Shown piece after piece: positions 3-50,965 of a DNA stretch of 64,000 nucleotides. The notes beneath the pieces are model-generated. The model did no database searches and had not been told where the DNA came from. It was given only the letters and a program-made list of their open reading frames with translations. The stretch is from positions 2,108,001-2,172,000 of the forward strand of contig CDLV01000007.1 in assembly GCA_001244265.2 (NCBI GenBank), written 5' to 3'. Each line of letters opens with the position of its first letter. Within the stretch, counting starts at the first letter, position 1. This DNA is from Microbotryum violaceum. Taxonomy: Eukaryota. The translations under genes were made by a program, and so were the position numbers.

Positions 3-5370
<5,368 letters not shown>

Positions 5371-5417: not shown

Positions 5418-10597
<5,180 letters not shown>

Positions 10598-13511: not shown

Positions 13512-18686
<5,175 letters not shown>

Positions 18687-18689
18687 TGA

Positions 18690-23135
<4,446 letters not shown>

Positions 23136-26945: not shown

Positions 26946-28600
26946 TCACAAACAGCCTGCCCGTTGCTTGTTGCCAAAACGGTCGTCGTCGCAGAGTCGG
27001 TTTAACTTGGCTTCAAACGCTCGTGCAATGAGTTCCGGTCGGTTGCATGCTTGGTCGTTCAGTCCCAGTGCAGCCTTGATTTCAGGCCATTCGGGGTTGC
27101 ACGTCACCGTGATGAACAGCGAAGGCTTTCCGTATTTTACGACGCACGCCATCGCATCTTGGTAACGCTGAGTGTTCTCGCGCGGTCTATTCTTGAACGT
27201 TGAGCCCAAAATCACCGAACATCCAATTTGATCCGGGGTCAAGCTGATGATGCCTTGGCCCGTGGTGAGGCGGAGGTTTTCTTGATCCAACTGGAGGTAA
27301 GTTGAGTCGATCGGTCTCGACCTGGGAGTATCCGTCATCACGAACGCCAGGAAGGCACGTTGGGTGCAATGCGGGATTGAGAAGTACTCGTCGCGTTTGT
27401 GCAAGTAGTACGCAAATAACTGTGAACGCGAGACTCGCCACCTCGATCCCCTTTATTTGAGCTTCGTCCTAGGCGTTCAAACGTTCAATGTCAGTCTGTG
27501 TATGCGCCTTAACAGAATGGAACATCCGAGAAAGAGCCGAAAGGGCTTACGTTCACCATCACCATTCTCTGCGTCCCCTTCGTCCTCGTCGCGGTCTTTT
27601 GGCAAAGAGTGGCCCAATTTGGTTGAACGCGCAAAGAGGAATGTTGAGGTGGAAGCTATCTTCCTCTGCGGGGAAGAATAGTGGGTAACGGAGAGGCATC
27701 GCAGACGGATGGAGCGAGCTAACGATTTGGTACTTGGGCCGACCATCGGGACATCGATCACCGTGCACCTGGAGAATAAGGTCTTGAGGTCCACGATCTC
27801 CCGTGTTGGTGTCGGAATCGCAGATAAGCATCGCCATTTCGGTGCTCGACGTAGGAAGGTTGTGGGTGCGTCGGTCTCGGCCAGCTGATAGGCAGAGGCA
27901 CGGGACCCACTCTTTGGCCTAACCTGCGCGAGCTTTGGCCGATGCAAATTCCCTCACAAAGCGATTGCCGGTACGCAACGTAGACTCGAGCTTGGTCAAA
28001 GTAGATCTTGGTATGCGACTGTCTGCGCCGTCGGGTCCAAGTTGAGTGTCGGTGGCCTCGGCCGGGCAGATGAGCCATGTTTTGGCAAAGGTTGGGCGCT
28101 GATTGATGGCAGGAACTAGGGCGCCGAGAGTGGGCCCAGTTGATGGTAAAGGCGTCAAAAAATCCGAAACCTGGGGGGTCCTTGAGTGCCTAGTCGAGTC
28201 TGGTCAAAGTGGGCAGCGAGCGAAGTGAAGACAGCGCGTTCAACTTGTTGTACGACCGGGCATTCTCGCGGAATGCAACAGCTTCTGTGTGGGTCGAGCC
28301 GTTCAGCATGTGGGCCTACGACGGACTGGAGAGACTGACCGGTATCCGACCCTTCAAGCAGCTGTCGATACTCGGGATTGGGCCGGAGAGAGGAGGTAGC
28401 TGCACCTTGCCCTGCGAACAGCACGTGCTGTAGTGTCCGGTCGACTTCGACCTTTTGTACTCCCAGTGTCGAGCTTTGTAGTTGATACACACGGCCATCT
28501 GGGGCCAAGGTAGTCGCGGATGGGAACATGGGGCTTGAGTGGCTTGAGCTCAATTCGAGGCCTGCGCACTTGCCTCTGCGCAGGAAGAGGTGGCGGTGGG
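26946..28600 (-). mobile_element. Helitron Rep remnant (N-terminal part, frameshifted, truncated before the helicase)
   Basis: CCSQGKVQLP, PLRYPLFFP and YQDAMACVVKYGKPSLFITVTCNPEWPEI...RPELIARAFEAKL are typical Helitron Rep segments. Confidence 0.88.
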
Positions 28601-29004
28601 GCGAGCTCAGTGTCGGTTCGGCCATCGGGCCATCGCGCTGACCACGCTGTCCGTTCTACAAAGCTGTACGGCGGCGCTTATACGGCAATACCAAGATCGG
28701 TTGAGTTGTTGTCATTATGCGCGGGGAACTGATTCTGTTGATCGGAGCGGGACGAAGAGGAGAGGAGAGCAGCGGACCCAGCAGCGGGCGCTCGAGCAGG
28801 CCAGGACCTACATGCCGCCCGCATAAATTGAAGTTCTAGGGCTGGGTCACTATAATTGTTTTGGCCCTGTCACTAATAGGCGACAAAAGTCGGACCCTCG
28901 GTCACGAAGTCTATCAAATAAATAAATAAAACACTCATTATTGTCACTGTCACTTATGTCACCAGATTTTCGCCTGTCACCTGTGTCACCAGCACTCAAA
29001 TGCT

Positions 29005-29103
29005 GTCACTAATGTCACTAAGTCCAATATTTGGTCACTAATGTCACTAAGTCCAATACTTGGTCACTGATGTAACTAAGTCCAATATTTGGTCACTAAT
29101 GTA
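29005..29103. repeat. 29-bp tandem repeat, about 3.3 copies (subterminal)
   Basis: Unit GTCACTAATGTCACTAAGTCCAATATTTG at 29005, 29034, 29063 and partial at 29092. Confidence 0.9.
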
Positions 29104-29340
29104 GCTGAAAATGTTGTACATCGGAGGACTAGGTCGTTGACATCGGCTACGATCATGTTTGTCGCTTTGAGGTTCGGTTATTGGGATGCGGATAGGGAAT
29201 CGAAGAAGCATCCAGACATTGCCACGAGTAAATGGTGCAATTACCAATTACGCGCGCGCGTTTACCCCCGAAGCTTGACCCATCTACCCAGGAAGTAAGG
29301 TGCAAAGTTCACTTGCAAATGGTGCATTCTTCGCGCACCT

Positions 29341-29523
29341 CAGCTTTTCTGGCCTTTTGGCTTAGACCAAGTGTAGTATCTGTTCTTATCAGTTTTGATT
29401 ACTGATCGTTGTCCACGAACAACATCCAATCAAATCTTATCTTTCATTGCCAGGGTGTTCAGTTCTTGGGCTTGCCCTCCTGCCTCCCAAGATGTCCGTG
29501 CTATCTCACTTCCAGCACGGTAC
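29341..29523 (+). ncRNA. U2: U2 snRNA-derived sequence (full length, probably non-functional as an snRNA)
   Basis: GGCCTTTTGGCTTAGACCAAGTGTAGTATCTGTTCTTATCAG matches the conserved U2 5' region including the branch-site pairing GTAGTA. Stem IIa ATCAG/CTGAT, stem III tip GGGCTTGCCC, stem IV CCGTGCT/AGCACGG. Sm site and loop IV are degenerate. Confidence 0.85.
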
Positions 29524-32500
29524 GTCAGTGGCGCCATTTTGTCTCAAGCCCTCCTGGACTTGATTTTTCACACTCGAGGGATAGCCTATTGGCCCCGACG
29601 ACCGCGCCTAACTCCACGCATGAACAACCGCAACAATAACGACACCAGCAATGCCACCCCCGGTGCTATAGCACCTAATTGTCCTCCCGACCCCACCGGC
29701 GTCACCGCCACCGCCCAAACCAGGTCGTACTCCGCGGCCGTCTCCGCCCGTTCCCATGCGAAGACCAACGCCACCCCCGCCACCGCGACCACTGTCGCCT
29801 CCCACCCGATGATTCACAACATCGCCAACTGTGTAATCATCAAGACCCCTCCCGCAACCACCTCCGAGAAAGTGCTCTCAGCACTCGATCACCACTACCC
29901 GTCCCTTGCAGGCGCCATGCCCTGCGTCATCAAGGGACAACACGGCATCCGATTCCCTAAGGACGCTGACATCGCCGGCCGGGTCGCGAATGGTCTGACT
30001 GTTGGAAAGACCTTGTGCCAAGTCGAGAAACTATTCTCAGCCACTACTGGTGTAATTCAATGCACCCTCTCTGGCTTCTTCTCCGATGTAGAGGCCTCCG
30101 CCTCTTTGACGAGCAGATTGCCGAGGCAAGGTCCTCCTTCGCCGCACTCATTACATCGGCAAGACTAGGCACATCTCTGGGGTGTATGACTTTGTTCTTG
30201 CCCTTGAGGACCCAAACAAATTGCCTCCTGCGTCCATCTCCATTGTACGTGACGGCGTGACCGAGCGAATCCCGCTCAGGATCACCGGTGGCATGCGCCA
30301 CTGTGTTTTCTGCCGTTCCGCGGCCCATGTCCGTAAGGACTGCCCTGTCGCCCCGGCGTGCAAGTCGTGCGCAAGCACCTCGCACGCCAGCCAGCATTGC
30401 CCGGGCCGGCGCCTCGCGTCGAGCCCCCAGGGCACTCCCGAGTCACGTCCAGCGCAAGCCTCCACCGTGACCAAAGCCCCCCCGGCCTCCAAGTCGATCC
30501 CTGCAGCACCCGCGCCCGACCGCGCGTCGAAGACCAAAAAACGTCGAGTGGACCCTGACCAGGACCTGGCTGCCCAGCCTCAAGATCCATCCAACAGGGC
30601 TCAGCCCGAACCCCTGTCGGAGACTCCTCGCCCCGAGTTCTCCTTCAATTTACCCCCCAACTCCGCCCCCCTGCCCGCCTCCAACCAGGGAACTGCCCCT
30701 CCCCTCGTTGAAAAATCCTCCGAGTCCCCCAGCTCGGAGACGACCCCTCCGCCCCCAAGCCCTCCCCCGGCCACGCCAACGCCAAAGATGATTGTCACTC
30801 GTTCCCAGTCGATTGCCGTCCTATCCACGCCAGCCACTCGTGACGACCCTCCCACTACGCCTGCCCCCGAAGCCTCCGAGCCAACCCCCCGGCCCCCCTC
30901 GCTGTTGCCCTCAGCCGCGCCCAAAGCCTGACCCAATGCCACCGACGCCGACGAAGATGCCAACGAAGAAGCCAAAGACCAAGAAGCACCCCCCAAGGAC
31001 GCGGACGACGCTATGGAGCAACATGATGAGCACAACTAAGATCCCAAATGTGTCTTTTGTTGCTGCCAATGTGCAGTCTATCAATGAAAATCGTAAGCGT
31101 GCCTCTCTTTTCTCCAATCTCTGCTCCCATAATGCCGATGTCTTTCTCCTGAGCGAAACGGGCCAACCTTCCCCGGAAAGGGTCGCCAGTGGACTCAGGA
31201 GTGCCAAGACTTAAAGCTCCCCGCTCTTTTTACTCCTCTCAACAACACTGCCATACTCTGGAAGAGCGACTCCGTGGTCATCACTATTGATCCCGAGTCA
31301 CCTCCCAACACTCTTCGCCTTTTTCTCTTTCCCGGACCGAGTCACCGACGCCACCTTTCGTGTGGGAGACTCAAAAATCCGGGTTGTATCAATATACGCG
31401 CCTTCCTCCGACAAGCCAGACAAAAAGTGTTTCCTCTCACATCTCAGCACCGCCCTCCGACAAGTCGTGCGCGACGACCCCTCGCTGCCTGCGCTCCTAG
31501 TCAGGGGGGGGGGACTGGAATTGTGTTGAGTCCCAACCCCTCGATTCGGAGAACCAAAATGGGACAAATTATGGGGGCCAGGAGATGCGCGACCTTGCCA
31601 CGGCCAACAACCTCTTTGACGTCTATCGGCTCCACCATCCCAAAGGACGAGCCACGACAAATCGCTCAGCGCCCGGCACGTGCCACCGCCTTGACCGCAT
31701 TTATGTCTCGCCTGATTGGGTCGACCTCTTCCATGACCACAAAATCTGGGCTCCTGTCCTCAAATCGACGCACTCGATAGTGGTGGCGCGGTTCCAAGTG
31801 CCAGGCGCAATCGACATTGGTCCGGGCTGGGTTTGCACGTGATCGAAGGCGACGCGACCTGCGAGTACCTCATTTCCACTGTCCAGACCCTCTACAATGA
31901 AGCCCTCCTCCAGACGCCCGACGACCCATCAGCAGCTTGGACGTCCACCAAACAACACTTGCTGCCCGAGCTTCAGGCTCTGGCTCGCACACTTGCCCGC
32001 TTCCGACGTGGAGGATCGAAGGAGAAGGCAGATCACTCGCGCTACGGTGCGGCTTTGTGGTCCCGCATTGATCCTTCCCTCGCGGGCCCATCTTCCATCT
32101 TCATCCGCCTACGCAAAGTGCGCGCATCCGACCTCATCCCTTCCCTCTCGGTCAACAATGTCGTCCACTCCGACCCCGACTCGAGGCCGCGAACGAGGTT
32201 AATGACGTGGGCGTCGGGCGGCGGCCGTTCGCGCTCGGACCCATTCTCAGCGTTCGGCTGACTCGGCCGCATGGGAACAAACGAAAAGGTGGTCGCGTCC
32301 ATGGAATTTCGAACAAAGGAAGAAAAAAGAAAAGGAAAGAGGAAGAAAAGTGTCTAATCGATGGTGGCGCTTGATTAATCGAGCGAGCTTTTTACCTATT
32401 CCTTTATTTCCTTTTTATTTTATTTATTTTTATTTTTATTTTTAGAAAAGCGCAAAATAAAATAAATAAAAATAAAAACAGGAAATAATGGCCTTTTTCC

Positions 32501-32998
32501 TCAAAGATGAAAAGCAGCTTTTTTTTTCTAGTTTTTGTCTAGACAAGAGAAAAAGGCAATATGATCAAGGTAGCAGAGCGTCTAGTACTCTTTTCTTTTT
32601 CTTTTTCTTTTTCTTTTCTTTTTCTTTTTCTTTTTCCTCGCGCGCTTATTTTCGAAATAAAAACAGAAAAGAGTCGGGAGTGATTTATTGTTTTTTGCAA
32701 GATCTGTCCAACAGAGCTCAGCCCGATTCTCTGTCGAAGAATGCCCGCCCCGAGTTCTACTTTATTCGCGATTTTGTCGGGGTTCGAGTCACTGAAGAGG
32801 CGGGTGTCCGAAGGTGTGATGGCTTGGACGCGTCGAGTCGCGCCTCGTCACACTCGCCGAGACGCCCGCTGTTCCGACGCCCGCCTTTGCTGTAGTTGAC
32901 CTTGACGCTCTGGACAGGTCGATCTGGTGTGGTTTCGAAGTCGTGTATCTTGCTTTCGTGCGCTCTCCTTTTTCCTACAGAAAAAAGACAAAAACTGG

Positions 32999-33043
<45 letters not shown>

Positions 33044-33788
33044 CGCCCGCAGGCCGGCGCTCGCTGCGCCAACAAACCGCAGTAGCGCCCAGATTGTCGG
33101 CGAGCTTCAAGCGGCCGTGGCATCTTTTCACAGCGAGCCACTGCACGTTCCATCGAGTGGATCTTTTAAACTCTTCTCTTACTTTTCGAATAAGCCAAGT
33201 TATTACTATTATCTAGTCCTAAAAATAAAAGATGAATGAAGTAGTTAATGCAGAGACAAACTAGTACTAGACATAATCGGATTTGAACCGACACAGTGTG
33301 TAACTTATGCCATAGGACAAACCATACTTATATAATAATAAACCTCTACTAGACTGGCCCCTCAGGCAAGTAAATATGTTATTCTCTCTGTTCATTCCCT
33401 TAGGTTATTGGCCTTTTATTTTCATCCTGACTCTTTAGTTTTCCGCCAGATCCAACAAACCAGCAGTATTTAGCGGAATTGAAGTACTTGCATATTACGT
33501 AGATAAGTAAACAATTATTGTACTCGCCCGACTCTTGTTCCCATCACTTTAGATTTTTTTATCTCAGCCCGACTCTTTTTCTTTTCGTCGCCCATTTTTC
33601 GTCTTTTTTGCTTTAGCAAAAAGCAGCCCCGCTGCTTTTCCTTTTTTGTCTAAAAAAACTAAAGATGAAAAAGGCGCTTATTTTTATTTTTTTGTCCTGG
33701 ACAAAAACAGCATATTTTTTATTTTTATTTTTTGCCTTAGCAAAAAGCGCAAAAATATGCTGCTGCTGCGAGACAATTTCTAAAATAG

Positions 33789-33829
<41 letters not shown>

Positions 33830-36738
33830 AGACAAAAAAATGGGCGAAAAAAGAAGGAAAAATAAGTAGATAAAATTAGCACTACTAAGTTAATGGCAGA
33901 CTATTTTACTTCGGTCCGGCGGTTACTCTTCGTTATTGAGGACGTACAATTCGCGGAGAGCTGACCTCACCTTCTCTGCCCCTCTTGATTGTGCGCAGAC
34001 GGTGCTGGTGATCAAATACGTTATCCCAAGTAGAAAACAGTAGACAAACGGAAGATTTGAGATTAAAGATATAAATTAATCCCTCTTTTCTGTTTTTATT
34101 TCGAAAATAAGCGCGCGAGGAAAAAGAAAAAGAAAAAGAAAAGAAAAAGAAAAAGAAAAAGAAGGGCAATTGGAGCCGCTAGCAAGTACTTCGAAGGGGT
34201 CTACGAGGATCGCGCTATCGATGACAACGCCTTGGAGAAGATCATCGACGGCCTCGCCTCGACTCGCCTATCCCATGCCGATTCGGACAAGCTCAAAGGA
34301 GCGTACCCCCTAGAGGAGATGACAAAGGCACAAGAGGCGTGTAAGTCGAACTCCTCGCCTGGACCCGACGGTCTCCCGGTCGAGTTTTACCGCGCAACGT
34401 GGACAGCCACAGGCCCCATCCTCCGCGACGTCATCAACTCGATCCCCACCGACGACGCCAGTTCTCGAACGTCGGCCCGCCACACTGCCCACATCCACCT
34501 CATCCACAAGCGCGGCGAGAGGGATCGGCTGGTGAACAAACGCCCCATCTCACTTATCAACGCTGATGATCGCATCATCTCCCAAGCCCACAACCAGCGC
34601 CTTGCCCCTCTGCTCGAGACCCTGATCGGCTCGACCCAGCGCGGTTTCGTTCCGAACCGCTGGATTGGCACGAACATTGCCAAGGTGCAGTGTCTCATGG
34701 ATCCTGGGCTCCCGGGTTCAGAGCCGGTGTCCGGTTTGCTCGCAGTGATGGAATTCGAGAAGGCTTACGACCGTCTTTCCCACGTACATCAATGCCGTCC
34801 TCAGCGCCGTTGGCCTTGGCCCGAAAGCCCGCCAATGGTACCGAGCGACTTATACAAACCAATCCGCCTCGATCTACCTCAACGGATGGCTCTCGGCCGC
34901 GTTCGATATCCTCTCGGGAGTTTGACAAGGCGACCCGCTGGCTCCGTCGCTCTTTGTTCTCGCAATTGAGGGCTTCGCCGTACAGATACGATCACAAGTC
35001 AAGGGCATCGCGAGCCCGGGACTCCCAACCATACGAGAACTTCTCTTCGCCGGCAATGCCTGCTGTGCTCTCCACGACACCTCGGACCTCAACCACCTCA
35101 ATCGGGCGATCGAGCTGTACGAGCGGGCAAGTGCCAGCAAGCTCAGCAACGCCGAATCTTTCCTCTATCCCCTCGGGTCATTCAGGGACCGTCCGATCCC
35201 TTCACACCTCGGGTCCTGGCGTCTCAGTGACTTGCAGTTTCGTTACCTGGGAGTGCAGGTTGGGGTGGACATCGCCGAGGATGCGGGCTGGGAAGAGGTC
35301 AAGTCCGCGACCGTCGCCCGGATACGATCCATCCCGATGTACAACCTTCTGTACGCAGCAAAATGTTCGATAATCAATATCTACTGCTACACGAAGATTC
35401 TCTACTACAATCGCTTCATCCCAGCTTCCAAGAGCGTTGTCAAGGAGATTGAGGACGCGGTCATGATCGCTATCCACGGTCGAGCCTCGGACGGATCTCA
35501 GAAACCCCCGAAGGTCTCTCGCCTGCGCCTCTGCACCCCTCTTGACCACGGTGGCTTCGGTTTGATCGACTTACCCCAGCGTCTCGCGATCGATCACGCC
35601 AAGTGGGTCTTTCATCTTCGGGACCCGAACGGCTGCTTCATTCGGCACCTCTTCGACATCCGCACTCGCCTTCAGGCGGCGAACGAACGCACCCCCTTTA
35701 CCTTGTCCAAATCGGGCCCCAACCCACATCGTCGCTCGTGGGTCTGGATCTGGTGGGCCTACTTTTGCCACCCTCCTCCACAGTGGGAACGCGCGGTGAG
35801 GAAGACGAAGGTGCTGCTCCCTCCACGATGGATCCGCTACTTCGAAGCCTGGGATTTGGTGACAACGCTCAACCCCCCCCCCCCCCGAACTTTCCAAGAG
35901 CCTGAATCTCGAGCAATGGGCAACACACATCCTCTACTTCCCAGCAGACCATGGAATCCAACTCTCGGTGAACCCGACGCTTTTCCGAGGACCCGATGGC
36001 GAGGTGATGACTCCGTATTTGTTTGTGAACGCGTCCAAACGCCACCAAGCCTTCCTCTACCCTCCTATCCTCTCTGTCGGTCATCAGAGGGTTTACTGTC
36101 TCCCCGAGCAACGCTGGAATGCCTGGTGGAAGGCGCTACGCAAGGTTCGCAGGGTTCTTTCGGACGCCAAAGACACGGCCCACCTCCTCTCCCTGGGGTC
36201 ACTTCATCCAGGTAGCCAACTCGCTTCTTCAAACAGCCCTTTTCTCCACAATCGATCTACCGCATGTGCTATGTGCCTGTCGGAGGCTCTGGAGACCCTG
36301 GCACACCTAGCGGTCGGTTGCCCGTTTGCCCGCCGCCTCTGGTCTGCGCTCACTCCTTTCCCACACCCCCACTTTGTTCAGTTCGTGTGCCCGGTCGTTT
36401 CTCGCTCGGAACGCCGACTCGTCGAGCTGTGTCTACTCTTCTTCCATGCGATCTGGAAGCTCTCTCGTCACCGCCGATTTTCGTCGGATCCTCTGGAGCC
36501 GATCGCCGAAACGGCATTCGAGGAGCTCCGCGCGTCCATCCAGAAGTCCAAGGGACGATTGGTTTCGCTGTAATCACCTAAGGGGGTTTTAGTGGGTATG
36601 GTTGATTTTGTTCCAAGGTCAACGAGTCCTACACTACTGGCCTAGCCAGTGTGCTTAACTGCATTTCCTCCGTCTTTTCCGAGGATTTTTAGGCATTAAT
36701 ATAGATATGCTGTTAATGAAATCTATTAGTTAAAAAAA
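29524..36738 (+). mobile_element. LINE-a: near full-length L1/Tx1-like non-LTR retrotransposon, degenerate; ORF1 about 29620-31039, ORF2 about 31023-36573
   Basis: ORF1 has two CCHC knuckles (CVFCRSAAHVRKDC, CKSCASTSHASQHC). ORF2 has APE (AANVQS, LSET, RLDRIYVS), RT (SPGPDGLP, RPISLIN, FEKAYD, QGDPL, YLG) and a C-terminal CxxC...HLxxxC; ends in A7 at 36732-36738. Confidence 0.92.
32187..34163. other. About 2-kb A/T-rich mosaic insertion between the LINE endonuclease and RT domains
   Basis: ORF2 reads VHSDPDSR then resumes AIGAASKYFEG at about 34166. The insert holds A-tracts of about 39-40 nt and internal inverted repeats. Confidence 0.8.
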
Positions 36739-37344
36739 GCAAGTTTGGTGCGTTTGCCCCGGAAGAAAGGTGCGTTTACCAATTAAGGATGGTGCATCTA
36801 CCACGTAGCGGGGCAATCCGCTGTATCTCGTGTAGTATGCCATGTATCACCTTGAAACTTGACGAGCTCTTTTACATGATCACCAAGTACGTCCACCTTC
36901 AGTAAGGAGCACTCTCACCCGGATCTCATGTAGTTGAAAATCGTGCCCGTACTCCCCCCCCCACGGGCTCGACGAAGGCCCCCAGGCATCGAAATATTCA
37001 CTCTTTCTTTTACTGGGTACTACAACGGGTCAAGTGATCCGACCATGCGTGTCACTGCCCGAGCAAAGTAGGCCCTGCATCCACTGCACAGCCGCGCATC
37101 GCCGCCAGCGAAATTGCTCAATCTTGTCTGGGTGCACGTAGCCTGCTTGACGCGTCGCGTCGCGCCAAATGCCTACTTCTACTTTCGACTCATGTTCACC
37201 GTGCCACGCCAGTTCCTGCCATCCGTTGCCATCGACCGATACTCGCCTTGGTTCCGTGTCCCATACGTCATGTCCAGTCAGCAGATGAATGCAACGCTCC
37301 AGAACAAGGGTGGCTGACCCCGCATTGGGACCCGACCAATCGAC

Positions 37345-38600
37345 ATGACCCGCCCACCTGCACATGGCACCTCCCAGATGTCCTCGACTATGTCTACCCA
37401 GAAGAAAGACTTGGGCCAGCGGGAGCCCGATATCATTGACCAATCTCCCTCAGTGACGCACTCCAATCAAATCTCAATGACTCCTGAGGGCTGCTCCGAC
37501 GCTGTCGACTCGAACGCCGACTCAGACCCCGCCGTCGACGACTCCGAAGCCAGCTCCTCCGATGGCGGCGAAGAAGCCATGGATCGACTGCGCCAAGTCG
37601 TCAACCTCCTCGAAAATTGTGCACCCAATCATCTACACCTGGAGTATGACACAATGCAAGCCAAACGTCAAGCGACCATGTCGTCGAACCTCCTCTGGTC
37701 GGCGGAAGAGAAAGCCGACTACGGGCAATGGCCGCTGATTCTTGGTGAGTGAAGGAAAGCAGATGAATGGACGCTCAAGGACACCATACCAATTCTCAAG
37801 CTTCCTTTGTACATGGCCACCGAAGTAGGTCGATACTGGTTCCAAGCATAAGCAGTCATTGATGGCTAGTTGAAGTTGCTGATTAGGAAGCAAAACGGAC
37901 AAAAGTCTTCCTCACCGATCCTCCTCCTATCCTTCATTGGCGAAACCAACCGGAACAGGAGCACGAATGGATAGCCTGCAAATACGAACGTTGCCTCGCC
38001 GTAATAGAAACATCTCACGGTGCTCCATCGATCTCTTTCCATCAGCATCCGGCGGATCACCTGACATTGTGCCCGGTCATTGGGTGCTGGTTGAGGCCCG
38101 TCTGTCCGACCACACCTTCCGCTTCCATGACTCGCTGCGGCGATCTAAAGAAAGCGTAGACGACCCGAACATTTCATCGCCGGAACAAAACTTTGCCAAT
38201 TGTTTCAAGGTGAAAGGGAGAAGCGACTTGTGTGGATCGCGCTCACCTGATAGGCTGACTATAATCCGCCGAGCTCATGATCGCAGAACATCGTTCCTTT
38301 CCTCACGGCTCGGGTAGAAGGCCCCATCCCTGGTGTCACCGGAGACAGTGACCGGCCCAAAATCCCGTACGCAGAGTGGGAGGGAGTGGTCGTGAAACCG
38401 CGAGTACCGAAGAAGGGGGACTTGATGCCTAGGACAGAGTTTACGCGACAGCCCGATAGCAACGCTTGCGGCGTCTTCGTTTGTCGAACGATGGAAACCT
38501 TTAGACTGGAGCTGGAGCCCACTCAAGCCACTACAGGACAACTTCTATGCTAACCAATGCGCATACATGTTAGACGTGGTTAAACATACTCGCTTGCGGT
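37345..38600 (+). pseudogene. Ulp1-like (C48) SUMO protease remnant, intron-containing; boundaries approximate
   Basis: GHWVLVEA (about 38075), FHDSL and QPDSNACGVFV (38449-38481) give the His-Asp-Gln-Cys catalytic order of C48 peptidases. Confidence 0.7.
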
Positions 38601-40599
38601 GTGACACGGAGTTGGAAGCAAATTCTGACCCCCCTCCCCTCGATTTGCAAGAGGGGAGTGGAGCTCCTCCGCCGGTTCTCGGTCAGTCATCCTACTGTTG
38701 ATCTCAACGACCTGATCTTAGTGATAGTTCGAGATTGCTTGATATTGAGGCTGACACTCTTGTGTATGCAGAATCTGTCCCACTCGCGCTCAAGGAGAGT
38801 TCGCCGGAGCTCGAAGAGAAGCCCTTGGGATCGGGAGCGCCCGGCATTGAATTTTGCGCGCCTACCCCCGTTCTGATTGACCCTTCGGTCGGCACAATTT
38901 ACACCTCTGAGCCCAATCCCGACGCTCAATGTACTTCTCCGTTGATTTCACGAAGCCCGCGGCCCAACCCGGCACCGCCAATTGCAACGATTGGTTCGAT
39001 GCCAGATGCGCCGCCAATGAGACTCCCGAGGGTCGTAAGGTTCGACCCTACTCCCCCTCTGCCGGTGTCTGAGGCACTCGAGGTCGTTGCTTGCTTGCCA
39101 AGGTATCAAACACGTACATTGGCCGTTCGACCACGCTATATCCAAAAGCCCCAAGCCCTCGCCAATCGAAGCGCAAGAGGGAAGAATCTTTTTTCAAAGC
39201 TGCGCGGCTTCGCTGAAGCCTTGCACTCAATGCCTGGCCGCAATACAAATCTGATGTTGGAGTCAATTGCTCAAGGTATGGGCTCTCCCAAACTGCATCG
39301 GACCCTTCCTTGTCATCAGAACACTCACATTGGTCATGGTTCATTTTGAGCAGCTGCAAGAAGAGGAGTGAGGTCGTCGATCCTAAGCTGTGCCATTATG
39401 AGTAGAACGGAAGGATGTATATACATACATATAATGAGATAATGATCGCGGCTAGTGACATTTGTGAGAACACTTGGTGATGTGCTACTAGCTTTGTTAG
39501 GACATGTTCACGGATGGTTTGGAAAGGCAGTCAATGATCTTCCTTGTCCAAATTCAAGCTGAGGCAGGAAATACGGCGAGGAATGCTATAAAAGGTGTCC
39601 CACTGCATATGGACACATCCCGCAGCTCCGAGATGATTGTTCGTCTTAGTCATTGTATTGCAGCCTAGGGTGGGGGGGGGCTACTCGGTCCGGGGTCCGG
39701 ACGACTCGGCCGCGGCGTGGACGAGAGCCGGCCCGGGTGCACGCACGATTTCCAACTACATGGGATCCTGATGAGAGTGCTCCTTACTGAACCGGGGGAG
39801 GTAAATGTCCAAAAAATGAGGTGAGCCTCGACCCATTTTGAGCCAAAAATGTCCAAAATTGCGGGCTGCCTAGCCGATTTTCGGGTCCACAGAATGTCCA
39901 AATTTGCGGGCCGCCTCTGGCTGGGCTTTCGGGGGTCCTCGGCAGCCTGCATGCCTGCAGGCCACCGGCGTGCCACGGCCCACGGCCCACAGCCGCGTGC
40001 ACAGCCCACTACAGTCCGGCTAAGGAGCATATCAAAACTTAGAGGCGCGTGGGCTGGAGTCGTGACCCGGCGTTTTCGTGTTCGTAAAATAACGCGCCCC
40101 CGGAGAGGGCGACGGGTTCCTGAACCTCTGACGGAGTACATGACACCAACTGACAGCGTCAGCTAGAATTACTAAGAACGTGCCATGGGTCGGGTATACA
40201 GCACCGAGTTCTCGAGTCAGGCGTCGGTTCACATGAATGAGACGTGTAAATGTGCCAAACGTTAATGATCATTGCAGACAATGAGATCGAGCCAGAGCCG
40301 GGGTATAAATGCATAAGTTGAGATCACTCGACATTGCCCATGTCACAGTCCGCGTCTGGACGCGTTTGTGCAGTGTTCGCATGTGGTCGTCAGCGCCGGG
40401 GACCCACATCGCGCGTTCACCGAAGTCAGCTATAAGGAGTGGTCTCAGTTGACGTTGAGAGATCGGGACTTCCGTGAGCGACTTGGGCGCGACCTGCAGT
40501 GGCTAGGCGTGGTGAATGTGTCCACCGCTGAGAGACATGGGAATCAAATGGCATGGAATGTCAGTATTCTCCCACAGATCTTTCACGGTGGGAAGAGCG

Positions 40600-42900: not shown

Positions 42901-45775
42901 GATGGACGCGAGGCTTAACACGTTGCCGAAATTCGAGCGTTGTGCACTGCAGTGGGCTGACCTCGATGGTGCGGAGGTGTACAAGATCAGAAAGTAGTGA
43001 CATGACGGCGGTTGTGTGATAGCCTGTCTTAGAGATGCGAGGAAGCTCCGTCCAAGTCAGCACAAAGCAGTACATATGTAATGATCGGCGCGCTTAGCCG
43101 GGGTCCTCCTATCCGGGGGAGCATTGTTCAAACCGATCGGCGCTGAAATCAGGCTCCCCTATTGCGCTCTTAGGCAGGGTCCCCCTGCGGGGTAGCTTTG
43201 TTTAAACCAATCGGCGCTAAAAACGGGCTCGCCTATGGAACTTAAACAGCCACGCGCGTGCGGTATTTCGGTCATTTCGTCCAATAAAATCTCAGAAGTG
43301 TACCCTTTTCCACCTCGGGCAGACATAAAACATACGCCTCAACAGGCGCGCGCGCAGCGCCCCCTCACACGCCTTCCAAGTCACTGCCGCATCGGGGTGC
43401 AGCCTTGCTACCCGAGGGCGCCGACTTGGCCCAGGTTACACCCAACTCTCTGCTTCGAGTCGATTCTGTGTACACACAACACTCTAACAGCTGCTAGATT
43501 AATTGGTGTTAGAAGTGGGGTCTGAGAGCCTAACTCATTGCTATTAGTCTTGGTTAATGCTTTATTCTGCGCGCGCGCATATCTTTGTCTTTGCGTCTTT
43601 TTTTCCTTCTGGGTTCCTTCTCCACGCTATTCTCATCATCTCACTCGTGTATCTCGGAGCTGAGTCGTGGAGTACCTCTTAGGTTAGTTACTGCAAAGCC
43701 ACGCTATTCTCATCATCTCACTCGTGTATCTCGGAGCTGGGTCGTGGAGTACCTCTTAGTCCTTGTTGCAACAGGTTATGAGCTCAACGGGCGAATCCGA
43801 CTTCCCCAACGGGTCGGGCAATCGCTTGTATCTCAAGGACACACAAGGGTACAAGAGCTGGTCACAACGTGCGTTTATCAATCTTCGAGCCGACAAAGTA
43901 TGGGATGTCGTCAATCAATCCATCGACTCCCTTGTCGCGGACTATCGGTCCACGCTCGTTATCGCACATGCAACTGCGTCCGTCGCGCCAGTTGAACCAG
44001 CCTCCTCCGGCTTTAGCGGGCTTGGGGGGGGGGGGCTCTGGTTCTGCGCACTCGGACGCCTCGCCCAGGCTCACCAGCGTTCAAGTTGCGGACAAGGTCG
44101 CGGAATATCGCGAACGGGCCATCCGCCGCAACGATTTGGCATGCAAGTACATCGCCAATTCGATCTCTGAGGAACAGATGTCTCACTTGATTCATCTTAC
44201 CTCGGCGTACGAGATGTGGGACACCCTCCGTGGTCTCCACTCTCACGGTCGCCCGAGTCGCACTATGGACCTCCTCAACACTCTAGCGCAACCTTACTCT
44301 GGGGATATTCCTTTTAAGGAATTTGTCAACGAGGTCAAGATCGCCATGACCGATTTTCAGAACCTCGGAGCTCCGCTTCCGCATTGGCTGTTTGCAGGCA
44401 TGCTCGTTCGGTCGCTCCCAGCCCAGTATGACTCGATCGTTGGGAACCTTGCCTCCAACATTGACATCCACATGGATTGGAACACGTTCTATCCGAAACT
44501 CCTGATGAATGTCGAAATGGCTGATTCCCGAAACAAACAAAAGGAATCGTTATCCGCTCGGATCGTTGACAATACTAGCCTCGTCGCCCGTATTTCCACC
44601 ACGGCGCAAAAGGACTACTCCAAGTCGTATTGTTCGCGCTGCAAAGCACTGGGACACGAGCGTGGTTGGCGTCTCTATCCAAGCAGGAACAAGGATGCGA
44701 GCGCTCCCGCTTCCTCGGACTCAAATTCGAACGTAGCTGCCATTGGTGTAGATGAATCTGCATTGATGACCTACACTTTCCCCTATTCGCGAACGATGCC
44801 ACGTTTTCCATGGATCATTGACTCGGGTGCTAAGGTCCATTGCGTTGGAGACAAGTTGGTCCTATCGGACGTTGTCTCTGAGCCTCTCAAGAATTTCTGT
44901 CGCCAATCAATCTCAAATTGAATCTCCCGGTCATGGCTCAGTGACGTTTCTTACCTCATATGGCGCTCGTATCACCATTAAGAGTCTACTACATGCCCGG
45001 TGCTCAATGCGGTTTTATCTCCATCGACCGTCTGTTGGAATTGATGACGTACGCTGTTGGTCCCCAAAGCAATCTCATTTTCAGCATCCGCGGCAAGTCG
45101 ATTCTGCGCTCGCTTCCTGGTCGGGGGTATGTCATGGGTGCAGCTCCCGTTCAGCCTATCATGTCATCCTCACCGCCTTCAATGGTCGGAGCCAATCGTC
45201 TCACTGGAACCTGTACGTTGATGCAAGCACATCGGAAGTTGGGCCATCAATCTCCTGCGGCGATCGTTTTGGCCGTCAAATCCGGGGCTATCACTGGCAT
45301 CACTCTGAAGGACGAAAAGGTTACTCCTTGCTTCTCGTGCATCCAGGCCAAGTCAAAGCGATCACCCTTCTCCAACAAGAGTACCAAAGCGCCTCATGCA
45401 CTCTACCGCGTCTTCATCGATCTCGGGTTTGTCAAACATCCCAATCACCATGGCAATACTATCTATCTCGCTATTGTGGATCAGTATTTGATGGCTAAAT
45501 GGACGATTGTGCTAAAGGACAAGAGGGCTGAGACAATTATCAAAGCATGGTCAAAATTTCAAGCCGAGTCCGAGCGTCAAACGGGTCAGAAAATCAAGAG
45601 GGTCAGATCGGACAATAGTCGTGAATTTGACAACTCATTGTTCCGGGCTCTTCTTGAAAAGCAGGGCATCATCGTGGAATTCACGGCCCCCTATACTCCG
45701 GAGCAAAATGGTCAAGTAGAGCGACTCAATGGATCTCTCATGGGTCTCGTTCGATCAATGCTCCTCAACTCCGGT

Positions 45776-46013
45776 TGTAAGGCGCGCGCGCGCCTTACTA
45801 CGGGCCACAGGTATTAGAAATAGAGATCGCGCGCACCTAGCTTCTTCAGTTCCCTCCCCATCGGGCTGACACCAGAAGCTAGGTGAGTACTGGTGTTCCA
45901 TATCTCAGCACTCTCGTATATCGGGCTGACACCAGAAGCTAGTTGCAATCCATATAACTTGCACCTGTCAGCTAGGTCGCCAGTGAGGCTCGAGAGCGAT
46001 CTCGTGCCTTTCA
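45776..46013 (+). repeat. Solo LTR (238 bp, Gypsy-like ends) inserted in Copia-2 integrase
   Basis: TGTAAGGC...GCCTTTCA with TSD CCGGT at 45771-45775 and 46014-46018; host frame LLNSG resumes as LPMRFW. Confidence 0.93.
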
Positions 46014-47690
46014 CCGGTCTTCCCATGCGATTCTGGCCAGATGCTCTGGCCGTCGCGACATTTGTTCTCAATCGTCAACCACATCCTCGTATTCAAGGAA
46101 AAACGGCAATCGAAGTTCTTCTCGGCAAGAAGCCTAGTCTTGCTCATCTTCAGCCATTCGGATCTACGGCGTTTGTCCACGTTCCCAAGGAGCGTCGCTC
46201 CAAGCTTGCACCTCGCTCCATTCAGGGAGTTTTCATCGGGTACTCCGGTGAATACAACTACCGTGTCTGGGTCCAATTGTCGAAACAGGTCTACGTTTTG
46301 TGTCACGTCACATTCCTTGAGACTCCTTCGGTTGTCACTTCGTCTCAAGATTGTGCGGACGCTTCTGATCCCGTTCATCATTCTCAACCTCCTCATCTTC
46401 CTCATCCTCCGCCAGATGTGTTGCCGTCTACACCAACTTCACCTGTTGTGGATCCAACTTTGCCGGATCCACAGCCTCCTCCGGTGGTTCCAATTGAAGT
46501 TGGTCAACAGGGGGGGTATCTTGCAGTCGTTCCTCGTAAGGATGACAACAATGACGACAACGATGGACTCGACGATGGACCTGATAACTATCATGACGCA
46601 GAAGAACCACTCGACGGTGAGGCGGAAGTCGCTCTCGCTCCTCGTGAAGGTTATGCCATCGTTCGCACTGGTCCAAATCCTGGCCAATTCGAGAATGTTG
46701 ATCCTTCCAACATCCTTCCTGCTGGTTCTCGTTATCGACCTCAACCTCCGGAAAATATACTTCCCATCATTTCGGCCATCATGGTTGATGTCTTGGATAC
46801 TCCACCCATGTTCCACGACAAGCTTTCCTATGATGCCTACTGTGCTGCCGTGTTTGCCGAAGAAGACATCGAGATACCCAAGACATTCAAGGAAGCCATG
46901 AAGTCACCCTATCGCAACCATTGGAGTGCGGCAATGGTCTCAGAACTTCTACAATTCGATCATCATGGAGTCTTTCAGGAAGTCAAGTGGCACGAAGGAA
47001 TTTGGGTACTCGGCACGATCTGGGTCTACAGTATCAAGCGCGATGCAAACAGCAAAATCATTCGTTTCAAAGCTCGTCTCGTTGCTCAAGGATTTGCTCA
47101 ACGCCCAGGCATTGACTACCATGACACCTACGCTCCTGTCGCTTGTTCTTCGAAGATTTTGTTCTTGATTGCTCTGGCTGCTGCTCAGGGCCTGTATCTC
47201 GAACAGTTCGATTTTGACTGCGCCTTTCTCAACGGCAAGATGACCAAGGATGTCTATGTTCGATACCCAAAAGGATGGAATCGTCCTCAATCCCCTGGCA
47301 AGTGCCTCAAGCTCGTGGGTTCCATTTATGTCACCAAACAGGCGCCCCGTGAATGGTATCAAGCCGTCAATGATCTCATGGTGTCTCGAGGCTTCATGAG
47401 GGCAACTGCCGATGCTTGCCTCTACATCAAGCATTCGGGCACTTCGTTTGCTATCATCACTCTCTATGTTGACGACGGTCTCATTGCGTCCAACAATCAG
47501 TCCTTCTTGGACTCCGAGCTCGGATCGCTTCACAAGGCCTTCCAGCTCAAGCGTCTCGGACCCGTCTCCTACTTCCTGGGCTTCGAAATTCATTGCACCA
47601 AAGATTACATCCTCGTTCACCAAAGCAAGTATGTCCGCACTATGCTCGAGAAGTTCGATTTTGCTTCTCCATCCAAGCGCCGTGCTGTCA

Positions 47691-50965
<3,275 letters not shown>

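Follow-up and report, generated by a model that had tools for sequence, protein, structure and literature searches.

Long interspersed nuclear elements (LINEs) and U2 small nuclear RNA (snRNA) are known to come together in several ways. The insertions of Keno and Utopia fall on a single site within U2, so that U2 from nucleotide 39 comes after the element (PMC4640811). A 5' part made of a full-length small RNA joined in the same orientation to a 3' part made of a LINE is a LINE template-switch product, described for mammals and also for a fungus, Magnaporthe (PMC2104539), and only two human U2 chimeras of this origin are cited, both with Alu fragments (PMC4494074). The same source reports that U1 and U2 have been added to the 5' ends of retrocopies in the crocodilian SINEU, the mobilisation of which is attributed to Tx1 LINEs, and describes 5' transduction, or co-transcription with upstream host sequence, for R2 with rRNA and for SVA with MAST2 (PMC4494074). 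Here we describe a locus in a stretch of 64,000 nucleotides of Microbotryum violaceum (contig CDLV01000007.1, positions 2,108,001 to 2,172,000, forward strand), hereafter called the window, where a full-length U2-derived sequence stands ahead of a LINE on the same strand. The feature is most likely an old and decayed U2-LINE chimeric retrocopy, a one-off by-product of retrotransposition and not a new kind of element. We put the probability that it arose as a chimeric retrocopy in a single retrotransposition event, the 5' transduction variant included, at about one half.

The scan of both strands of the 64-kb window with cmscan at the Rfam gathering thresholds gave a single match, to U2 (RF00004), at 29342-29534 on the plus strand. 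This match of 193 nucleotides has an E-value of 4.2e-20 and a score of 104.8 bits, where 46 is the gathering score, and covers the model from position 1 to 192 of 192 without truncation, so the original prediction, that a U2-like sequence runs from stem I to stem IV on the strand of the LINE, is borne out by the Infernal check against the U2 model. The 5' third (stem I, GTAGTA and stem IIa) is nearly identical to the consensus, and the branch-point-pairing region is preserved as had been claimed, with an intact GTAGTA at 29373 in a stretch that follows the Rfam consensus letter for letter; the conserved GAUC ahead of this region is GACC here. In U2 the Sm site has the motif RAU(3-6)GR, lies between stem IIb and stem III, and is required for the U2 small nuclear ribonucleoprotein (snRNP). 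A regular-expression scan found no such motif in all 193 nucleotides (29342-29534), the Sm region reading AAATCTTATCTTTCATTG, and loop IV departs from the consensus, being UAUCUCACUUCC as compared to caUUgCAcUacc. The stems still pair, with one non-standard pair in stem IV (NC line of cmscan) and 11 marks of non-standard pairs across the full alignment when counted by eye, which agrees with the prediction of an altered Sm site and loop IV in a molecule that has kept its stems. A TATAWA box, allowing one mismatch, was also absent at -100 to -1 of the U2 copy, though TATA may not be the snRNA promoter of this fungal group. Lacking both a canonical Sm site and an upstream TATA-like box, the copy is probably not the working U2 gene of the fungus, and the same two features make it fit a retrocopy better than a working gene. 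The U2 part would seem to be without function at this locus; the uses once proposed for such a head (capping, stability or spliceosome contact) found no support, the Sm site being absent. The RNA fold of U2 together with the linker behind it (z = -2.78) is what would be expected for any U2 and is uninformative.

The flanks of the element turned out to be parts of a degenerate array with units of about 22 bp that start with GGTGC. On the 5' side (29234-29341, no strand assigned) the units begin at 29234, 29256, 29278, 29299 and 29321, with GGTGC itself at 29234, 29299 and 29321, and the last unit ends exactly at the first base of U2. On the 3' side (36739-36812, likewise without strand) a partial unit, GCAAGTTT, comes first, and behind it are three 22-bp units that begin with GGTGC (36747, 36769 and 36791). 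The GGTGC motifs that had been noticed in both flanks could in this way be sharpened into an array. All three GGTGC pairs with an exact spacing of 22 nucleotides in the window fall within the two flanks, and when the 68 GGTGC sites were placed at random (n=20000), no placement had three or more such pairs and one had a triple. Single units resemble each other across the element, GTTTACCCCCGAAG in the 5' flank being like GTTTGCCCCGGAAG in the 3' flank, and AATTACCAATTA like GTTTACCAATTA, and CATCTACC is found on both sides. The motif GGTGCRNTTACC, with at most one mismatch, has five matches against 1.44 expected, a number reached by 3 of 100 shuffles, and four of the five are in the flanks. The direct alignment of the two flanks is only moderately convincing as it is significant in one scoring (28, reached by none of 500 shuffles and by none of 438 other window segments) and not in the other, made on longer stretches (17, a value that 7 of 300 shuffles and 7 of 344 window segments also attained). 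Since both flanks belong to one degenerate 22-bp GGTGC array, U2 and LINE (29342-36738, from U2 nucleotide 1 to the A-run) look like a single insert that split one small array, and the earlier proposal that they were inserted as one unit is thereby strengthened. A 29-bp tandem repeat (29005-29102, 3.4 copies, 92% matches) lies about 130 bp upstream of the 22-bp array.

No U2 follows the element. In a permissive cmscan (E<=10) of 28000-38500 there were 15 matches, one of them U2 (29342-29534) and the other 14 far under their gathering scores, and no second U2 piece was among them, as the prediction of no U2 3' half after the poly(A) had it. It follows from the lack of any U2 fragment 3' of the element at this threshold that the element is not inserted inside a U2 gene. 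The sequence GTGTAGTAT at 36830, beyond the 3' array, was considered as a possible second and decayed U2 and rejected; it is absent from the same scan and its alignment is no better than chance. The locus thus differs from a Keno or Utopia insertion. Keno (Tx1 clade) is a LINE associated with U2 and has an AP-endonuclease (APE), as is the case in the window. Both Keno and Utopia (the latter of the NeSL clade, with a restriction-like endonuclease, RLE) sit inside U2 with a 3' flank from U2 nucleotide 39, whereas here the whole U2 is upstream only and the far flank is the 22-bp array. The endonuclease of Utopia is of the PD-(D/E)xK type; the homologues of the window family carry PF03372 instead, no search aimed at an RLE having been made.

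The ATG of the first open reading frame (ORF1) of the LINE is at 29620, which places U2 upstream of it as predicted, at a distance of 85 nucleotides instead of the approximately 100 bp given originally. The putative linker between them (29535-29619, plus strand) could be the 5' untranslated region (UTR) of the LINE, a 3' extension or flank of U2, or both. From CTCGAG, at about 29573, the linker may be homologous to the 13 codons ahead of the Met of a related protein, P0019. The codons before this Met (LEKGNSYW) are compatible with CTCGAG...TATTGG in the window, at about 29573-29592, and the comparison, made from a protein and not from a DNA alignment, hints that this part is LINE 5' UTR. That leaves about 38 nucleotides (29535-29572) between the end of U2 and the candidate leader. 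ORF1 starts at the usual Met of the family: with P0019 and P0061 set aside, 12 related proteins have an alignment in this region, which for 11 of them begins with their residue 1-17 at 29620-29674 and for the twelfth, P0056, further inside. The LINE 5' UTR may be slightly truncated.

The LINE itself could be followed on the plus strand from ORF1 to the A-run. ORF1 (29620-30931) begins with the N-rich sequence MNNRNNN, has a region that resembles an RRM as well as CCHC knuckles (near 30300-30400), and carries one frameshift at about 30100-30168. The 5' part of ORF2 (30996-32183) has the APE region and the start of the region upstream of the reverse transcriptase (RT), and the 3' part (34169-36573) has the RT and a zf-RVT-like Cys motif; both parts have frameshifts, and the stop codon is at 36571-36573. 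The 3' UTR of 165 nucleotides (36574-36738) ends in a run of seven A (36732-36738). In the broken ORF2 of the window the Pfam domain RVT_1 scores 26.2 bits, under the cut-off of 29.6, and zf-RVT scores 22.1 bits, also under its cut-off; no Pfam AP-endonuclease match was found in the ORF2 pieces. PF03372 is present in P0004 and P0005, which align to 30996-32183 at 61-94% identity. When 5843 candidates were searched with the 429-residue piece close to the RT, 60 proteins passed E<=1e-3, up to 95% identical to the window LINE; PF00078 is precomputed in 56 of them, as counted from the table, and many carry PF00078 as well as PF03372. Judged by the domains of its homologues, the element is a LINE with APE and RT. 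We take it to be of the L1/Tx1 type, a label that comes from the domain make-up (APE, RT, zf-RVT below its cut-off, ORF1 with CCHC).

The family is abundant, with many copies in Microbotryum, since the proteins come from this genus in 41 of the 60 cases (M. silenes-dioicae, M. intermedium and M. saponariae) and in two from Microbotryomycetes. The closest relatives, P0001 and P0002, have 93-95% amino acid identity and are found on other contigs of M. silenes-dioicae. In the M. lychnidis-dioicae genome 392 LINE copies have been counted, and U2 is not mentioned in the available parts of that report (PMC4469406). When the family proteins were aligned back to the window, ORF1 showed one frameshift and ORF2 four or more. 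In addition, the family-protein alignment places a nested AT-rich insert of 1985 bp (32184-34168, no strand assigned) within ORF2, where residues 349 to 351 of P0002 bridge the gap from 32183 to 34169. Because of the frameshifts, at least five in all, and the nested insert, this LINE copy is dead. Two A runs, A39 and A52, are present in the insert, together with an inverted repeat (32593-32688 as compared to 34071-34163, 95%) with arms of (TTTTCT)n/(GAAAAA)n. The insert could be a nested element of the non-autonomous kind, or could result from a rearrangement or from an error of the assembly. A 65-bp piece of it (32698-32762) is 83% identical to ORF1 at 30581-30645, and this was the sole match when 29100-37000 and the outer flanks were searched with BLAST against the window; the search found no second U2, LINE or flank array.

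The origin that we favour for the locus is the following. The RNA of a Microbotryum L1/Tx1-type LINE, full-length or nearly so, would have been reverse-transcribed at a nick in the small 22-bp repeat array, and at the 5' end of the LINE the reverse transcriptase would have continued onto U2 snRNA by template switching, which is the mechanism that we infer. In a less likely variant, 5' transduction, the template would have been a read-through transcript from +1 of a U2 gene located just upstream of the source LINE. By either route the product, U2-linker-LINE-A(n), would have been integrated as one piece, and the frameshifts, the nested insert and the loss of the Sm site from the U2 part would belong to a later decay. 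The U2 part starts at nucleotide 1 where the last flank unit ends, which fits both a template switch to U2 and transcription from the U2 start, as both predict this border; the two routes differ only in the nature of 29535-29572. U2 and the LINE point in the same direction, with 85 nucleotides from U2 to the ORF1 ATG, and this counts for a single chimera.

The known chimeras give a measure of how well this explanation fits. The U6-, U3- and U5-L1 chimeras of mammals and WEIRD-MGL of Magnaporthe have in common with the window that a full-length snRNA forms the 5' part and a LINE in the same orientation the 3' part, that there is a 3' A-run, and that the whole was inserted as one unit. They differ from it in that the window LINE is not 5'-truncated (the ORF1 ATG and a leader are kept), that there is no clean direct repeat, and that the partner is U2. 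Set beside the numbered hallmarks of PMC2104539, the locus has a full-length cellular RNA as its 5' part (i), over the whole of the U2 model (1-192/192), and the two parts have the same orientation (iv), the 85-nucleotide linker between U2 and the ORF1 ATG being of LINE or U2 origin, or possibly both. For the short direct repeats (v) there is only an imperfect candidate of about 14 nucleotides, within the repeat array. SINEU, mobilised by Tx1-Mar, also has a U2-derived 5' addition that is attributed to template switching, and there the head became heritable; SINEU is short, non-autonomous and multi-copy with shared junctions, whereas the window has a LINE body of the autonomous type and one known junction locus. 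In the 5' transductions of R2 and SVA, upstream host sequence joins the retrotransposed unit and the insert starts at the host transcription start, as would fit the window, but for the window no source locus is known in which this LINE stands behind a U2 gene.

Other carriers of U2 were sought by way of translated protein models, since the ORF1 frame extends without a stop back across the linker and most of U2 (29377-30168). In a word-indexed protein database the 81 residues upstream of the ORF1 Met matched one protein, P0061, among 21 candidates of 144-461 residues, and the translation of U2 and linker had no match among the proteins of 30-143 residues. A query of 263 residues against a library of 1.84 billion representative proteins gave 20 matches, of which P0061 alone extends upstream of the ORF1 Met. 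This model of 441 residues from M. silenes-dioicae, aligned with the window at 29155-30540, starts with the translation of the window's 5' flank (ATG at 29155); most of U2 has been removed as a predicted intron, and the 3' half of U2, the linker and ORF1 then follow. P0061 has the same 5' flank as the window, and for this reason we regard it as the same locus in M. silenes-dioicae and not as an independent copy, the 'protein' being evidently a spurious gene model. All that follows from this is that the insertion has sufficient age to be shared with M. silenes-dioicae.

P0019, with 48-58% amino acid identity to the window in the ORF1 region, consists in order of a copia pol C-terminus (97% to window 4893-5000), the start of a copia long terminal repeat (LTR), 13 codons and the ORF1 Met. 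This copy seems to be located in a copia LTR with a leader of at most about 39 nucleotides and no room for a U2 of 193 nucleotides directly upstream, unless the gene model hides an intron. The remaining 12 ORF1-related proteins start at or near the Met and are uninformative on upstream sequence. The one-off chimera, which was one of the two alternatives first proposed, therefore fits the little that could be tested: the protein routes led to no independent second carrier, the sole other one being the same locus, and P0019 appears to lack U2 directly upstream. The bases before the 5' end of the insert (29330-29341, GCGCACCTC) resemble ACGCACTC (taken from window 5150-5164), which in the P0019 copy belongs to the copia LTR and precedes the leader of the LINE; with no more than two cases, this likeness may be due to chance, or it may hint at a 5'-junction preference.

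Metagenomes and the literature were included in the search. A metagenome scan with the alignment of 19 family ORF2 proteins gave 36 loci with 151,376 bases, the identity of the best segments being mostly 22-37%, with three short matches at 62-71%. U2 was found in none of these 36 LINE loci by blastn-short or nhmmer (E<=1), a result of little weight given how remote and how short the loci are; blastn-short gave one 13-nucleotide chance match (E 0.34). Entries for public sequencing runs with part of 29200-30400 numbered 20, in 8 studies and under the organism codes A-E, with no RNA run listed among them. Within the parts of the literature available to us there is no report of an autonomous LINE with a U2 head, nor of U2 in Microbotryum transposons.

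Several points weigh against a single chimeric retrocopy. There is no clean target-site duplication (TSD) around the insert; the best candidate, GCAAATGGTGCATT as compared to GCAAGTTTGGTGCGTT, is about 14 nucleotides long, imperfect and inside the array, with about 13 extra nucleotides before U2. The 5' truncation of the LINE at a random site, hallmarks (ii) and (iii) of PMC2104539, is not seen, as the usual ORF1 Met and an 85-nucleotide leader are present, and in this the LINE part is unlike that of most chimeras described there. A direct joining of U2 to LINE is not demonstrable from this locus, where about 38 nucleotides (29535-29572) could belong to either part. On the side of the carrier search, protein models rarely include untranslated leaders, proteins of more than 461 residues were covered only by representatives at 50% identity, and P0019 is a gene model that could hide an intron. 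The close subfamily members P0001 and P0002 are located elsewhere in M. silenes-dioicae, and their 5' ends are not visible in the protein data.

These points lead to the first of the alternatives, that the U2 head is a trait of a family or subfamily. A master copy of a Microbotryum LINE subfamily would then have a U2-derived head in its 5' UTR and pass it on to its daughters, of which the window copy is a decayed one. The complete ORF1 start and leader, unusual for accidental chimeras, speak for this, as does the exact start of the insert at U2 nucleotide 1, and the close members on other M. silenes-dioicae contigs could be further daughters as far as their hidden 5' ends go. The Sm site and loop IV have changed in a copy with a consensus 5' third, which could reflect evolution within a leader, and heritable U1 and U2 heads on retroposons are documented (PMC4494074). 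Yet neither the protein and metagenome routes nor the BLAST search of the window gave a second independent carrier, P0061 being the same locus; P0019 is a family member with no U2 directly upstream, and U2 is missing from all 36 metagenome LINE loci, distant and mostly short as they are. A copy with no Sm site would not be assembled into a U2 snRNP. The head would not bring a promoter either, as U2 promoters are upstream of the transcribed region (PMC4494074). We consider a family trait unlikely. In its fullest form this would be an anther-smut L1/Tx1-type subfamily that transposes as U2-LINE units with a heritable and complete U2 5' head, an autonomous counterpart of SINEU, in which the branch-point-pairing region and stems I and IIa are kept for a benefit at the RNA level such as nuclear retention, protection of the 5' end or spliceosome contact; this we hold to be a shade more doubtful still.

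It is possible, and to us just as unlikely as a family trait, that two events are involved, and that the LINE landed just 3' of a U2 gene or retropseudogene that was already present, either by chance or because it prefers sites downstream of U2 with read-through. The about 38 nucleotides between the U2 end and the leader-like part of the linker could be U2 3' flank, no clear TSD brackets U2 and LINE together, and LINEs that target small-RNA genes in dependence on host transcription are known, in the Tx1 group and elsewhere (PMC4640811, PMC4494074). What opposes this course of events is that the 22-bp GGTGC array resumes beyond the LINE, as expected for a split array and not for sequence downstream of U2. 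The U2 also has no TATA-like box within 100 nucleotides upstream and no Sm site, the P0019 copy in its copia LTR shows that the family is not strictly directed to U2, and no TSD is visible around the LINE alone, the sequences after 29534 and after 36738 having only CAAG in common by eye. Finally, a site-specific insertion of the Keno or Utopia type into a U2 gene would account for a LINE that adjoins U2 and for an APE like that of Keno (PF03372 in the homologues), but it is very improbable with a complete U2 (1-192) upstream, nothing U2-like 3' of the element at E<=10, a restriction-like endonuclease encoded by Utopia, and Keno reported from animals only (PMC4640811).

The rest of the window is rich in other mobile elements, and across 6374-26736 and 43782-47701 it is nearly all retrotransposons. 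A copia-type element that is apparently intact was found at 783-5009; its LTRs start near 608 and near 5100, and it has an open frame of 1408 residues (gag, protease-like barrel, integrase and RVT_2). A near-identical copia C-terminus and LTR start make up the N-terminus of the P0019 model, which carries an inserted LINE of the family studied here. Gypsy-type elements with a chromodomain are located at 8233-9966 and 13734-17767, and further copia-type pieces at 19320-22955 and 43782-47701. On the minus strand, at about 49827-50846 (ORF 48672-50852), there is a second LINE of another family, with RVT_1 and zf-RVT and about 24% amino acid identity to the studied family; the cmscan of the window showed no U2 near its 5' side, and this LINE is uninformative for the question of U2 heads. 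Just downstream of the studied LINE an inverted repeat of 59-61 bp was observed (36888-36946 and 39743-39803, 87% identical, about 2.8 kb apart), and a DNA transposon may have these two arms as its terminal inverted repeats. A scan for promoters and terminators of the bacterial type found nothing, and is not relevant to a fungus.

If the junction is common to many copies, this would be the first autonomous LINE with an snRNA head, as far as the literature searched shows, and it would reopen the question raised by SINEU, of what role an RNA polymerase II snRNA head with no internal promoter can have in a retroelement. The P0061 model, in which flank, U2 and LINE ORF1 are spliced into one 'protein', is a warning for annotation. 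If the locus is a one-off, as appears most likely, it is a fungal case of a U2-LINE chimeric retrocopy, one whose LINE part is unusually complete, and it would help to show that template switching or 5' transduction takes place in the LINEs of basidiomycetes as in those of mammals and Magnaporthe.

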